NCBI GenBank assembly: GCA_964016885.1
Contig: OZ024741.1
Coordinates: 270,196,001 to 270,260,000, forward strand
DNA length: 64,000 nt
Source of the DNA: Eledone cirrhosa
Lineage: Eukaryota
Direction: 5' to 3'
Of this stretch, positions 36,399 through 42,394 are shown one piece after another. How positions within the stretch are numbered: the first letter of the stretch is position 1; the number at the start of each line of letters is the position of its first letter. The notes below the pieces were generated by a model, which ran no database searches, was not told the DNA's origin, and worked only from the letters and a program-made list of their open reading frames with translations. The position numbers were made by a program, and so were the translations under genes.

Positions 36399-36497
36399 AT
36401 AGGAGAAAGTATGACCCCGGGGGTCATACTTTCTCCTATTACTCACTCTACTACCCTAAGTATTGAGTACTCTGGTGCGTTATGGTCCATCGTTTTA
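36399..36497 (+). mobile_element. Minimal fold-back element (20-bp perfect hairpin plus conserved tail) in (TA)n
   Basis: ATAGGAGAAAGTATGACCCC-G-GGGGTCATACTTTCTCCTAT followed by ACTCACTCTACTACCCTAAGTATTGAGTACTCTGGTGCGTTATGGTCCATC. The tail is near-identical to 41328-41380. Confidence 0.85.
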
Positions 36498-36509
36498 TAT
36501 ATATATATT

Positions 36510-37030
36510 ATTTCAAAAACAACTCGGTCGAGAGCTTAATTCGTTTTGTGCTATTTTTGCAAATTTTTGCAATAACTACACATACTCAATTCATTGGCCA
36601 AAATAGGGGTTTTCTCCCCTTAGAACCTCACATGTGCTTTCATAACCTGTGAGATGCTGGCCCATGAAGAACAAAATGCCTGTTGAGAAAGCGATGCCTT
36701 GTTCGATCATTATACCAAAAGCTTATTTTTTATAAGCAGACAGTATTATTTATTTAGGTGTCGCAGAAACCCAAATTCGGAGTATTCCATCTTCCCCGAG
36801 GGTCCGGATGACTATTTCAATCATATCTTATTTTGTTTGACCCGTTTAACTTGTTCGCTTTTTTGGCTCTGGTGGTTAATGGCTTCTTAACCATCGTCTC
36901 AGTTTGTATGACCTTTTTAACTTATGTTTATAGCTCTGGTTTCTTCATATCCATTGAGCGCTTGTCTACACAATACGGAAGTTGCGTTTCGCTAATTTCT
37001 ACCCGCCGAAATGCGATTCTTGCTACATTT
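36510..37030 (+). repeat. Unclassified interspersed repeat, copy 1, bounded by (TA)n
   Basis: Colinear similarity to the reverse complement of 52640-53000, with shared blocks TGCCTTGTTC, GTCGCAGAAACC, GGGTCCGG, TGTTTGACCCG, TTAACCATC.TCTCAG, GAGCGCTTG and CGATTCT.GCTA. Confidence 0.65.
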
Positions 37031-37055
37031 ATATATATATATATATATATATATA

Positions 37056-37781
37056 TAGAAAAGAATGAAACGAAATTTCATTTCTCACTCTTAGTACAGC
37101 TGATACTTAAATGTCAGTATATATACGTACATACATATATGTATACAGACGTACAGTAGTATGTATATATATATACATACATGCACATATATATATATAT
37201 ATATATGTACGTATGGCTTTACTGAACATTTATTATAATCTTCGGGCTGTTTGTAAACAAACATCCCGAATTACGCCGTACAGTGTTCGGCAACCATCGT
37301 CGCCCTTTTGTTCAATACTGACACAGGAACGATATACTAGTTTCAAGCTTATTAGCTATCGTCAGCATCGTATACCTTCCTGTCAGATGATTGAATGTTT
37401 GAAAGTATATACTTTCCTTATGCATATTAACGGTTGAGCAGCCTAATTTGCATATCGAGTGAGTTAGTCGGCCGGGCGTACCGAAAACGATAAATGGAAA
37501 AGAATGAAACGAAATTTCATTTCTCACTCTTAGTACGGCTGATACTTAAAAGTGAGTATGTATACGTACATACATATATGTATACAGACGTACAGTAGTA
37601 TGTATATATATATATACATACACACATATATATATATATGTACGTATGGTTTTATCGAACATTATAATAAATGTTCGGTAAACCCATACGTACATATATA
37701 TGTGTGTGCATGTATGTATATATATACATACTACTGTACGTCTGTATACATATATGTATGTACGTATACATTCTTACATTT
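37056..37781 (-). mobile_element. Non-coding retrozyme-like / non-autonomous PLE: ~1.4 tandem units of a ~440-bp monomer plus terminal fold-back
   Basis: Direct repeat 37056-~37235 vs 37497-~37665. Hairpin 37548-37781 is centred on GAACATTATAATAAATGTTC. It carries an HHR at 37329-37371 and has (TA)n on both sides. Confidence 0.75.
37329..37371 (-). ncRNA. Minimal type I hammerhead ribozyme
   Basis: Minus strand ACGATG-CTGACGA-tAGCTaataAGCTt-GAA-ACTAGT-A^TATCGT. It has a 6-bp stem I, both core boxes, a 4-bp stem II, palindromic stem III ACUAGU and a GUA triplet. Confidence 0.85.
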
Positions 37782-37853
37782 ATATATATATATATAGTTC
37801 GGAATAACAGAAAACAAAAAACAGAGAGAAGCAGGAGTAAATGTAACAAACAT

Positions 37854-37890
37854 TATTAGTTTCACGCTTGGTGAGGGTAGGGCTCATCAG
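37854..37890 (-). ncRNA. Degenerate hammerhead motif
   Basis: Minus strand CTGATGA-gccctaccctcaccaagcgt-GAAACTAATA; stems pair poorly. Confidence 0.35.
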
Positions 37891-37959
37891 CGGGTTTCGC
37901 CTAATCAATAATCAATCGATTATTTTTATATTGATATATTGTGTGTAAATGTGAGAGTG

Positions 37960-39236: not shown

Positions 39237-39640
39237 ATAATAAGATATATGAACGTAAGAGAGGAGGAAATAGAGAGATACAGAGAAGTGCGATACAGAT
39301 TACTAAGTACCAATAGCCGAAGCGGGATGTGGTGCTCAATGCTTGGGTTAGCCGAGTTAGATATTAGAGAAGATTTAATATTTAGTAGATTGTTCAAGCA
39401 GAGCAGGTATAAGCAAATGAATGAATAAATGAGTTAGTTACAAGCCGTTAAAACAAGTTCTTTATATAAATTTTACATAATGTTTCGCCCACACGGGCTC
39501 CTCAGAGAAATGATTGTTTATATAATGTCATCAATAAATATAAATACCCGGGTAGCCGGCTGGAGATCTTTCCATTAGATTAACGTCATCTTGCATGGTA
39601 GGTGAAAACGGCCTGTAACTCCTTCATTCATTTGCTTATA
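39237..39640 (-). mobile_element. PLE pLTR-derived element with HHR, short inverted copy and conserved tail
   Basis: Inverted match 39408-39449 vs 39608-39640; HHR at 39468-39512; minus-strand tail ACTCGGCTAACCCAAGCATTGAGCAC; (TA)n on both sides. Confidence 0.7.
39468..39512 (-). ncRNA. Type I hammerhead ribozyme
   Basis: Minus strand CATTTCT-CTGAGGA-GCCCgtgtGGGC-GAA-ACATtATGT-A^AAAT. Canonical core and G-C-closed stem II; stem I is imperfect. Confidence 0.75.
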
Positions 39641-39788
39641 TATATATATATATATATATATATATATATATATATATATATATATATATATATATATATA
39701 TATATATATATATTTATATATATATATATATATATATATATATATATATATATATATATATATATATATATATATATATATATATATA

Positions 39789-40669
39789 GATGCAGAAAAG
39801 TTCCAGGACTGATGTCACAAAAGATTTATTTCAAACCCAAACTTCACAGTAAGAGTTTTCTCCTTCAAAGTAATCCCCCTGGAGTATGTAACTGTAATCT
39901 TAGCTCTCTGCAGGGATCAAACTTTTTTCTTCATAATTTTATATACATGTCCTCTGTTTCAGGTCGTCAAGCAATGAGCACAGAGCAACGAACAAACTTG
40001 AAGTTTCTGGTACGGTTGGGGAAAACTCCGTCAGAAGCACTGGGATTGCTGCAGCAAGTGTATGGAGATGAGACGATGCAACGATCACTTGTTTTTGAGT
40101 GGTGCAAGATGACCCCAGGAGCGGAAGGCCTTCAACAACTAGGACTGAGGTCAATGTTGAGCGCATCAGGAGAGATGGTGCGTAGCGATCGTCGGCTGAC
40201 TGTTCGACTGATGGCAAATGAGCTGGGCATGAATCGGGACAGCGTCTGGAAGATTCTCACTGAAGATTTGGACATGCGGAAAGTCTGCGCGAAGATGGTG
40301 CCAAAACTGCGGAACCATGACCAGAAGGGTCGTCGCATGCAAGTGTGCCAGGACATCCTCGAGCGTCTTGAAACCGAACCAGACTTGCTAGGGACAGTCA
40401 TCGACGGTGAGGACTCATGGATCTTCGAGTACGACCCGGAGGTGACCCGTTTTGAAGACGTGGACGACATCAAAAAGGCTCTGACGACGGAACTGCGGAG
40501 GATCCCGGAAGAATCCTTCCAGGAGTGCATGCAAGCGTGGCAGAAAAGGATGGAAAAGTGAAATAGACTCCAGGGGGAGTACTTTGAAGGAGAAAACTCT
40601 TAGCGTGAAGTTTGGGTTTGAAATAAATCTTTTGTGACATCAGTCCTGGAACTTTTCTGGCACACCTCA
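39789..40669 (+). mobile_element. Mariner (Tc1/mariner) DNA transposon, internally deleted
   Basis: ~100-bp inverted ends 39789-39886 / 40567-40669 in (TA)n, consistent with the TA target. Transposase fragments include HTH region [18 protein letters not shown], (D)DPRSGRP, KMVPK (WVPH-like), [13 protein letters not shown] and terminal GEYFEG. Confidence 0.95.
39974..40592 (+). pseudogene. Mariner transposase pseudogene
   Basis: ATG at 39974. Frameshifts near 40110-40170, a deletion after EYDPE that removes the 2nd and 3rd catalytic Asp region, and a stop at 40559-40561. Confidence 0.9.
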
Positions 40670-40944
40670 TATATATATATGTATATATATATATATATAT
40701 ATATATATAGATAGAGAGAGAGAGAGAGAGAGAGAGAGAGAGAGAGAGAGAGAGAGAGAGAGAGAGAGAGAGAGAGAGAGAGCGCGCGAGAGTGAGAGAG
40801 AGAGAGAGAGGAGAGAGAAGAGAGAGAGAGAGAGAGAGAGGGAGAGAGAAGAGAGAGAGAGAGAGAGAGAGAGAGAGAGAGAGAGAGAGAGAGAGAGAGA
40901 GAGAGAAGAGAGAGAGATATATATACACACACATATATATATAT
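40670..40944. repeat. Compound (TA)n-(GA)n microsatellite
   Basis: Directly visible. Confidence 0.95.
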
Positions 40945-41190
40945 ATAGTATAAAGAAAACGAAAAATCAGTGATGCACCTGGACTCAATTTATTGCATAT
41001 TACAATTGTTTCGCCGGCAGGTAGCTCCTACTTGCCGGCGAAACAATTGTAACACGCAATAAATTGAGTCCAGATGCATCACTGATTTTTCGTTTTCTTT
41101 ATACTATCTACACTCTACTCTGCTGAATATTGAGTGCTAATTTTGGCATACCGTCTAAGGAAGCACCATAGCTAACATTATACACAAGTA
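40945..41190 (+). mobile_element. Fold-back element (80-bp arms) folded in presumed HHR stem II, plus conserved tail
   Basis: Arms 40945-41024 / 41028-41107. The apex GCCGGCAGGTAG-ctc-CTACTTGCCGGC is followed directly by GAAACAATTGTA. Tail CACTC..TATTGAGTGC, then (TA)n. Confidence 0.8.
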
Positions 41191-41211
41191 TATATATATA
41201 TATATATATAT

Positions 41212-41405
41212 ATAGGAAAAAGTATGACCACGACGGCAGAGCTCAAGCCGTTTCGACGGCTATTTCTGAACTGAAATAGCCGTCGAAACGGCTTGAGCTC
41301 TGCCATCGGAGTCATACTTTTTCCTATTTCCCACTCTACTACCCTAAGTATTGAGTACTCTGGTGTGTTATGGTCCATCTGGTTCCTTACCACAATTTCT
41401 TTGTT
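41212..41405 (+). mobile_element. Fold-back element (55-bp arms) folded in presumed HHR stem II, plus conserved tail
   Basis: Hairpin 41212-41327 with loop TGAACT. The apex is followed by GAA-ACGGC-ttgagctct-GCC(G/A)T-C^, i.e. stem III and a GUC triplet (GTC in the left-arm copy). The tail matches the 36399 element. Confidence 0.85.
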
Positions 41406-42394
41406 ATATAAATATATATATATATATATATATATATTGTTATACTTTGGGAGGGTCATGTTGCCAATAAGAAACACATGCACCAGTTGCTTTCACTTCA
41501 ATTTATAACAATATCGGTTTCAACACACGATTTCAGATAAAGAATCTTGCTAAACAAATTCAGAAACGATATATATATATATATATATATATATATATAT
41601 ATATATATATATATATATATATATATATATATATATTGGAGGCTTAGTAAAATCGAATCTTAGGCGGTGTGCAAGCAAATTCGACCTACGATATGAATGA
41701 GTTAGCAAAGCACTCGACAAGGGTAGGTCCAGAGAGTAATAACATACGTTTAAATAGCTTGACAAATTGAACATTGTGGCAGGCAAAATCTAACACAAAT
41801 ATATATATATATATATATATATGTGTATATATATATATATATATATGTGTATATATATATATATATATATATATATATATATATATATATATATATATAT
41901 ATATATATATATATATATATATATATATATATGATGGTTGCCCCACGTTATCGAGTATGGCCATTGCACGATATAACATTATTAGTAATTATCAATTAAT
42001 GTTATGCAATGACTGTGTGTAAAGATTTTGTTTAAAGTGAGGAAAGACTGCACTGAGCCAATCCTACTCTCTGACACACACAGACAGACAGACACACACA
42101 CACACACATATATATATATATATATATATATATGTGTGTGTGTGTGTGTGTGTGTGTGTGTGTGTGTGTGTGTGTGTGTGTGTGTGTGTGTGTGTGTGTG
42201 TGTAAAAAGAAAACAGAAATAACAACACAATTGGTGCAGTATGTGGAAGGAATATATTAGTTTAACTCTTGAAACAGGAAGAAGGGGGTCTTAATTTTTC
42301 GGACGCTAGTCCTTCATCAGAAGAAAGAATGAGAAATAAGAAAGATTGAAGGGACGGGCGGGTTGGAATTGGAAAAAATGTCTTTAGATAAAAA

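Follow-up and report, generated by a model that had tools for sequence, protein, structure and literature searches.

A bulged hairpin in the one-sided tails of (TA)n-borne fold-back repeats of Eledone cirrhosa and its second copy in Hydra-clade Penelope-like elements

Introduction

Why should short fold-back repeats of several families, scattered through (TA)n arrays, all end in the same kind of one-sided tail? The question is raised by a 64,000-nucleotide stretch of the Eledone cirrhosa genome (GenBank assembly GCA_964016885.1, contig OZ024741.1, positions 270,196,001–270,260,000, forward strand), hereafter the window, in which positions are counted from the first letter. An earlier note, made from the letters of the window alone, had described in these tails a motif ACTC-N11-18-GAGTRC and proposed that it is a cis-acting RNA stem-loop for recognition or priming by the reverse transcriptase (RT)/endonuclease of Penelope-like elements (PLEs). 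The order inverted arm, sense arm and one-sided tail between (TA)n runs is a known PLE arrangement, and Craig et al. (2021; PMC8557442) ascribed the tail to endonuclease-mediated resolution. The choice of an internal start, the one-sided tail and the inverted ends of PLEs, telomerase RT's closest relatives, are stated as open in the literature. We describe here a hairpin that marks the Hydra clade of PLEs and occurs there twice, and we favour an answer in which each copy would fix one insertion end.

Results

The tail motif is a bulged stem-loop

The unit was redrawn from folding and anchored pairing of the window elements. It is a bulged stem-loop composed of RCTC, a variable inner stem of 2–6 bp, a loop, a 2-nt TY bulge and GAGYRC, and the earlier drawing was inaccurate. 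The full descriptor finds 8 sites in the window against a mean of 0.03 and a maximum of 1 in 300 shuffles, an enrichment that is partly circular, as the descriptor was derived in part from the same elements; an additional, weak ninth copy at 41710(−) fails it. The 10-mer alone, with one mismatch allowed, is not enriched in the window (15 matches, shuffle mean 35.6), while ACTC-N8-22-TGAGTRC gives 6 overlapping matches at 4 sites against a mean of 1.6, equalled in 1 of 100 shuffles. The spacing of the half-sites ranges from about 6 to 61 nt across copies. Rfam yielded no match at gathering score across the window, and the 124 matches below threshold in 36300–41900, none of them above it, were mostly generic microRNA hairpins.

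The nine elements that carry the motif (E1–E4 and E6–E10) form about five groups: E1/E7; E3; E6; E4 with, weakly, E9; and E2/E8/E10. In the following list, site 1 is the end position just 5′ of the motif and site 2 the end of the tail, and bit scores and E-values are those of a covariance model built from loci outside the window.

36350–36401: (TA)n target array 5′ of E1
36399–36439 (+): E1 fold-back, inverted arm 36399–36417 and sense arm 36421–36439, ending at site 1 (36439), 5 nt before the motif; no intact hammerhead
36445–36470 (+): E1 motif, ACTC/GAGT, 4-bp inner stem, TT bulge; tail 36440–36495; 32.2 bits, E 1.1e-5
36509–37029: E2 element, between (TA)n runs; no hammerhead, open reading frame (ORF) match or inverted arm seen
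36933–36961 (+): E2 motif, GCTC/GAGC, 3-bp inner stem; E 0.006
38980–39074 (+): E3 fold-back arms, with a complete minus-strand hammerhead core (CTGAAGA 39034, GAAAC 39015) in the Hydra hammerhead format
39089–39109 (+): E3 motif, ACTC/GAGT, 3-bp inner stem, exceptionally 14 nt from the arm end; tail 39075–39151; E 1.3
39408–39640 (−): E4 fold-back arms around a minimal hammerhead that is intact (core 39505, GAAAC 39486); end at 39408, 3 nt before the motif
39332–39404 (−): E4 motif as redrawn, GCTC/GAGC, 6-bp inner stem, long loop; tail to 39240; E 2.2
40945–41107 (+): E6 fold-back, its centre a likely hammerhead stem II; of the core, GAAAC and stem III alone (the 3′ half)
41112–41137 (+): E6 motif, ACTC/GAGT, starting at 41112 or 41117, with a 2-bp inner stem; the arm end is 4 nt away; tail 41108–41188; missed by the outside-trained model
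41212–41327 (+): E7 fold-back arms, E1 family; hammerhead position taken by a hairpin without an intact core; site 1 at 41327
41333–41358 (+): E7 motif, ACTC/GAGT, 4-bp inner stem, TT bulge; tail 41328–41404, site 2 near 41394–41404; 31.3 bits, E 1.9e-5
41710–41737 (−): weak E8 motif, one inner pair, TC bulge; element 41637–41798, a distant relative of E2/E10
52635–53228: E10 element, 70% identity to E2; no hammerhead
52706–52733 (−): E10 motif, GCTC/GAGC, 3-bp inner stem, TC bulge; E 0.78
53680–53733 (−): E9 inverted arm, running into (TA)n at site 1; between the arms, other elements are nested
57447–57562 (+): hammerhead with long stem II, probably part of E9, with a SINE-like repeat and a (TAT)n run lying between it and the E9 arm
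57881–57951 (+): E9 motif, GCTC/GAGC, 6-bp inner stem, 47-nt loop; sense arm 57824–57875 ends 5 nt before it; tail to 58052; E 3.7

Six of the nine elements (E1, E3, E4, E6, E7 and E9) show the layout (TA)n, inverted arm, sense arm, tail, (TA)n; no inverted arm was seen for E2, E8 and E10, and TA runs terminate all nine. Between the arm end and the motif lie 5, 5, 4, 3, 5 and 14 nt in the fold-backs, and tails measure 56–177 nt. A hammerhead core is complete in E3 and E4, probable in E9, reduced to its 3′ half in E6 (with 15 nt in common with the hammerhead at 57447), degenerate in E1/E7 and not recognisable in E2/E8/E10. The first pair is A-U in E1/E7, E3, E6 and E8, and G-C in E2, E4, E9 and E10.

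Much of the earlier description holds in this redrawn form. All six of its 10-mers are present at the places and on the strands it gave, they do separate a hairpin from the 3′ (TA)n, and the inverted arms stop at a TAT/ATA continuous with the 5′ (TA)n. The pairing of a preceding ACTC with GAG(T) stands as part of the bulged stem except at 39332(−), where the ACTC it named gives an A-C mismatch and the true partner is GCTC at 39404. The bodies it called mostly dissimilar are so only as groups: 36402–36495 and 41215–41411 are one family (93% over 72 nt), and the element at 41710(−) aligns with two that were missed, 36509–37029 and 52635–53228. Three motif copies had been overlooked, at 36933–36961(+), 52733–52706(−) and 57881–57951(+).

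Three neighbouring structures deserve mention. At 34940–35003 lies a relative of E3 with a decayed hammerhead and the same TATA end (site 1), tail-less. A larger fold-back at 35088–36349 has 395-nt arms, a long-stem hammerhead in each (36081+ and 35299−) and a one-sided 57-nt tail without the motif. A short hairpin with an ACTC..GAGTAT look-alike behind it occurs twice, at 37058–37120 and 37495–37560, beside a Hydra-format hammerhead at 37365(−).

The motif follows hammerheads of the Hydra clade

A string search of the supplement of PMC8557442 pointed to the Hydra clade. Elements of this clade resemble those of the window in their (TA)n targets, 5′-truncated inverted copies and a one-sided tail, and resemble some of them in a type I minimal hammerhead near the 3′ end (PMC8557442). 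By eye, three of the six new Hydra consensi of that paper show the motif clearly: Hydra-2_Amil and Hydra-2_Ajap have it at the 3′ end, while Hydra-1_Ajap has two copies at the 5′ end. In Hydra-1_Crog it is degenerate, and the other two stop at TATA before any tail. The string TTGAGTAG near the end of Hydra-1_Amil was considered as a tail motif and rejected, as it matches an upstream look-alike. Window copies differ from the published ones in often having A-U for G-C at the first pair and in some loops near 50 nt.

Using degenerate Hydra RT/endonuclease peptide patterns, which are blind to the motif, we fetched 144 partly overlapping loci (337 kb) from among the matches listed; full flanks were available in only 80 of 120 loci. 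They agree with the description of Hydra-clade elements in carrying a single ORF with RT and C-terminal GIY-YIG endonuclease, with RWK, DKT and CxCx5C: in 15 long ORF rows (11 distinct), RWK and DKT/DKS occur in all 6 that reach the N-terminus and CxCx5C in 13. At least 79 sequence-only motif matches were found in the 144 loci against 2–13 in 10 shuffles, and 46 of the 79 lie 25–130 nt after a hammerhead. With the covariance model, whose scan covered 100 of 145 loci with the training sequences among them, 43 of 59 matches have a same-strand hammerhead upstream, 39 at 43–78 nt and 4 at 114–132 nt. The expectation that the motif would lie 3′ of the hammerhead-bearing pseudo-long terminal repeats (pLTRs) of autonomous PLEs is thus borne out in Hydra-clade loci and published consensi. 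Tails in the fetched loci are about 60–70 nt long.

Several contigs among these loci (L001–L024) are filed under bacterial metagenome-assembled genomes and hold animal-type PLEs in (TA)n arrays; on these two features they are likely to be host-animal DNA in the bins. In L032, L049, L056, L092, L098, L106, L117 and L130 a smaller look-alike hairpin ending in TGAGTA lies between hammerhead and site 1, and the E6 arm has a similar piece. Viral contigs yielded no match in two scans, and the sole match of a protein scan of genome contigs was the contig of the query itself.

As a feature of PLEs in general, which the earlier note implied, the motif could not be upheld in a small set of controls; it marks the Hydra clade. 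Three hammerhead-bearing PLE pieces of the window and a further PLE in it lack the motif, and the descriptor has no match in the non-Hydra pieces at 42200–45450, 51549–52578 and 58075–62951. At the ends of non-Hydra ORFs in the fetched loci, a small control (n = 3), two lack it and the third has a match beyond the TA run that likely belongs to another insertion. Among the Naiad/Chlamys consensi in the supplement of PMC8557442, a string search restricted to TT/TC-bulge strings, in which line breaks may hide matches, found a single full stem-like match. It belongs to the 3′ region of a Naiad element near supplement part 23, has a 6-bp inner helix, lies well inside the untranslated region (UTR) and may be due to chance. 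Four strings from E2/E8/E10 matched none of the Naiad consensi under the same limits of the string search, and E2/E10 had no match to the Hydra hidden Markov model (HMM).

The non-Hydra pieces themselves are as follows:

42200–45450: PLE remnant with inverted hammerhead-bearing pLTRs (42320− and 45336+), CA/TG repeat ends
51549–52578: fold-back PLE 3′ end with a GIY-YIG-like C-terminus (by eye) and a hammerhead; arms end at the same site, no tail
58075–62951: near full-length decayed PLE with direct terminal repeats, no hammerhead found; presumably Neptune/Nematis-like, to judge from its linker

The inner stem covaries

The earlier note had read covariation in an outer closing pair (T-A against C-G). 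We rejected this: among hammerhead-linked copies outside the window the pair forms in 5 of 26, against a null of 4.5 (p = 0.49), and within the window it forms in 4 of the 9 elements. Covariation is seen instead in the inner stem and in the alternation of A-U and G-C at the first pair. In 24 family representatives chosen by flanking sequence only, inner pairs 1–3 are formed in 24 of 24, 22 of 24 and 19 of 23, with Watson-Crick counts equalled in 6, 0 and 0 of 20000 permutations, respectively. Combinations other than Watson-Crick in the inner stem include 6 G-U against 1 A-C, which favours pairing in the sense strand. A 36-row alignment, its rows hand-picked by eye from 49 unique matches, has 91% of its cells paired against 78.5% when shuffled and 49 double changes against 17.7, with slid controls at 20–55%. 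When built from outside loci only, the covariance model ranks E1, E7, E2, E10 and E3 first in the window, E1 and E7 at E-values about 1e-5 and E2 at 0.006.

Two further structures were tried. A general pseudoknot between loop and downstream sequence was rejected (mean helix 4.42 against a null of 4.31, p = 0.30 in 26 loci; p = 0.21 in 36); in 8 window elements it reached p = 0.012, a post hoc value obtained among relatives, and such a pseudoknot may form in E2/E8/E10. A second hairpin after the motif gave a weak signal only (mean z −0.67, 18 of 26 negative).

Two copies of the hairpin and two insertion ends

Where a Hydra element continues into the next ORF, a second copy of the motif follows 59–69 nt downstream of the first (L001, L007, L030, L033, L034, L058 and L087), and in L096, whose copy 1 is cut by the contig end, at 51 nt. 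In such tandem elements copy 2 lies shortly before the ORF start. A stricter scan of 9 ORF starts found two copies in 3, one in 1 and none in 5; on inspection, which left out L005/L015 (one contig), L001 has two diverged copies, L006 is an inverted junction and L029 is cut just before the start.

Hydra 3′ ends take two forms, passing into (TA)n about 40–60 nt after the hammerhead or running through the motif and 26–50 nt more. An automatic classification of the 73 hammerhead-bearing ends among 133 gave 23 with tail and motif, 23 with TA and no tail, 11 others and 16 too short, figures used qualitatively since a check by eye turned up errors: motif calls that were false (2) or came from a nested element (1), and motifs that had been missed or had decayed (about 5). 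Among 70 motif-less hammerheads, 26 could be aligned to a motif-bearing relative; by gapped alignment, 15 of these 26 tail-less copies, from about 7 families, end 3–6 nt 5′ of copy 1 (site 1), one of them at a locus edge. Tailed copies end 1–4 nt 5′ of copy 2 (site 2) in 3 families. As tail-less copies stop before copy 1 and tailed ones before copy 2, the tail corresponds to the interval between the two hairpins.

Sequencing reads agree with this for the E7 family, which is high-copy, with 17142 contigs in one run and 18689 in another of the same sample, possibly the one from which the window comes. The family breaks into (TA)n at two points, one at 41327 (in 131 and 132 contigs, with 2497 reads) and one near 41394–41401. 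Of the read variants listed for the E7 motif, the loop holds two and the bulge one, and a further one preserves pairing as G-U.

Other features of the window

The window is animal-type repeat DNA, a satellite up to 34766 followed by nested transposon pieces in microsatellites, and its SINE-like repeats may be akin to those of octopuses. One row bears on clade membership, in that it places the Hydra clade in this genome:

63500–63685 (−): decayed Hydra-clade endonuclease C-terminus (HMM independent E-value 2.1e-9), unattached to the motif elements

The remaining repeats are these:

1–34766: 47-bp satellite, 740 copies, 96% matches, strong strand skew
39793–40659: Mariner-like element in (TA)n, 93-nt inverted termini, internally deleted transposase
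46433–46987: 51-bp tandem repeat, 10.9 copies
53740–57280: several long interspersed nuclear element (LINE) fragments with a C-terminal zinc knuckle, inserted in (AAT)n and nested between the E9 arms; we take them to be R4/Dong-like

Discussion

Our preferred reading, which we hold to be probable though by no means secure, is that the duplicated hairpin at the junction of hammerhead and ORF, its copies about 60 nt apart, binds the RT/endonuclease, and that each copy would set the start of reverse transcription 1–6 nt on its own 5′ side. The protein would nick the (TA)n array and begin complementary DNA (cDNA) synthesis at a TAT/TATA patch that adjoins the bound hairpin in the RNA. Priming beside copy 2 would copy out copy 1 and give a tailed arm, and priming beside copy 1 a tail-less one. 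We are less sure that both events take place on opposite strands of one target, and that two short cDNAs are then joined at self-complementary RNA, such as hammerhead stem II, to yield fold-backs of arm, arm and tail. A more specific version, in which each hairpin loads one subunit of an RT/endonuclease dimer and the subunits prime a few bases 5′ of their hairpins from opposite strands of the nicked (TA)n, is offered tentatively and may well prove wrong. The fold-back repeats are likely to be broken copies of Hydra-type Penelope elements, and the window elements 5′-truncated or non-autonomous products of the proposed process. The core of the earlier proposal, a cis-acting stem-loop at PLE 3′ ends in (TA)n, retains the position 3′ of Hydra hammerheads, the inner-stem covariation and the fixed distance to the ends, and loses the closing pair and the ACTC pairing at 39332.

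Several observations weigh against this reading. Outside the window the outer pairs are near-invariant (pair 1 is G-C in 35 of 36 and pairs 2–4 are invariant), with a single double change, in copy 2 of L001, so that for these four pairs conservation of sequence is seen and not pairing; the near-invariance argues for a putative sequence-specific recognition. Related families are not fully independent of one another. The outside-trained model misses E6 and E8 and places E3, E4, E9 and E10 only at E-values of 0.8–3.7, among 2 spurious matches. E2, E8 and E10 lack a hammerhead and E1/E7 an intact core, so the motif, in its three related copies at 36933, 41737 and 52733, is in part free of the upstream hammerhead context, an independence that the earlier note had named as refuting its proposal. 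In the published octopus Hydra consensus no clear copy was visible by eye in the accessible text. As to the ends, 11 of the 26 aligned copies stop elsewhere (6 earlier and 5 later, involving diverged relatives, locus ends and decayed motifs), site 2 rests on 3 families while 3 other alignments, to distant relatives, stop 17 nt early, the E3 gap is 14 nt, and TA microhomology blurs each junction by 1–3 nt. Finally, no ORF is attached to any motif element of the window, where the Hydra HMM finds only the unlinked 63500–63685(−); Hydra membership of the window elements therefore rests on motif, hammerhead format and target. Absence of an ORF is expected for 5′-truncated copies.

The most serious alternative, which we nevertheless consider unlikely, is that the GIY-YIG endonuclease reads the motif on DNA and cuts beside it while resolving an insertion intermediate, the tail being a cleavage product and not the trace of a second priming site. 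The near-invariant GCTC..GAGCAC does resemble a protein site, fixed offsets suit a cut as well as a start, Craig et al. (PMC8557442) attribute the tail to just such resolution, and earlier work cited in PMC11167929 found the Drosophila virilis tail necessary for endonuclease recognition. However, a half-site spacing this variable, together with covariation of the inner stem and its preference for G-U over A-C, is ill-suited to a site in duplex DNA; a variant in which a single-stranded DNA hairpin is the recognised form stays compatible with these data. Moreover, tailed single copies lack copy 2, so that a cut at site 2 would need a longer intermediate, and the ends of the Poseidon tail coincide with the RT starts found in vitro (PMC11167929).

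It is also conceivable, if rather improbable, that the hairpins bind protein for cis-preference, packaging or control of ORF translation, and that ends fall near them only through TA-like patches pairing with the target. The position of copy 2 shortly before the ORF start would suit such a role, and both junctions lie at TAT/TATA patches able to anneal to (TA)n unaided. Yet the UTRs hold other TA-like patches, and the ends cluster 1–6 nt before both copies in unrelated families, a contrast that we drew informally and that speaks for positioning by the hairpins.

We give very little credence to a third possibility, that a single strand, priming itself or snapping back at a palindrome, generates the fold-backs, and that the motif does no more than stop or bound the copied-back arm. 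Palindromes at inverted junctions were read as self-priming in the published inverted-pLTR model (PMC3846280), the E6 centre is a hairpin, and E7-family joints fall at many places, but the second copy next to site 2 and the tail-less ends without an evident inverted partner would be left unexplained. That the elements are miniature inverted-repeat DNA transposons (MITEs) or chance hairpins in TA arrays, with a coincidental motif, is hardly credible and already largely refuted: the inverted arms and TA flanks are MITE-like and the 10-mer alone is not enriched, but the tail is one-sided, symmetric terminal inverted repeats are wanting as one arm continues into the tail, centres vary among copies, hammerheads are present, and the same motif stands behind Hydra ORFs in other animals.

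Comparison with known systems

The published Hydra elements and other endonuclease-bearing PLEs have tails of 30–40 bp (PMC8557442), against about 55–180 nt here. Non-LTR retrozymes (bioRxiv 10.64898/2026.07.22.740005) are, like the window elements, non-autonomous, hammerhead-bearing derivatives of PLEs; they form tandem arrays of hammerhead units, whereas the window elements are single or inverted and end in (TA)n. A classification as retrozymes was rejected, as the window holds no tandem array with complete hammerheads. A precedent is Poseidon of Anolis (Frangieh et al. 2024, PMC11167929), in which two internal RT starts, measured in vitro, bound the tail; this supports reading the Hydra tail as the product of two starts. 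RNA 3′ of the starts is needed there, hammerhead cleavage is dispensable and a dimer is predicted. Poseidon differs in belonging to another clade and in that reverse transcription begins within its ORF, in an AC-rich stem loop, at starts without homology to the target, and the main text of PMC11167929, as far as accessible, reports no duplicated positioning element.

The terms "stem-loop", "stem loop" and "hairpin" do not appear in the accessible main text of PMC8557442, nor is a tail motif described there, and we found no description of the motif in the PLE literature searched, which was mostly open-access text without supplementary figures. The motif is thus apparently a previously undescribed element of RNA type in a known retrotransposon clade.

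A short duplicated hairpin that is conserved in elements across several groups of marine animals, and that keeps a fixed distance to both ends, would make the origin of the tail accessible to mutation, and the motif can serve as a marker for classing ORF-less repeats in (TA)n arrays and for setting the true boundaries of Hydra consensi. If the two hairpins do load a dimer, the PLE tail, the inverted pLTR and the fold-back mini-elements would be explained in one step, and hammerhead-less passengers such as E2/E10 would travel on the hairpin alone. RT-bound RNA structures that fix where copying starts or ends are familiar from the 3′ stem-loops of LINEs and short interspersed nuclear elements (SINEs), the R2 3′ UTR and the template-boundary element of telomerase. 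The LINE structures lie 5′ of the start and are copied, whereas the Hydra hairpins lie 3′ of the inferred start, and there are two of them.

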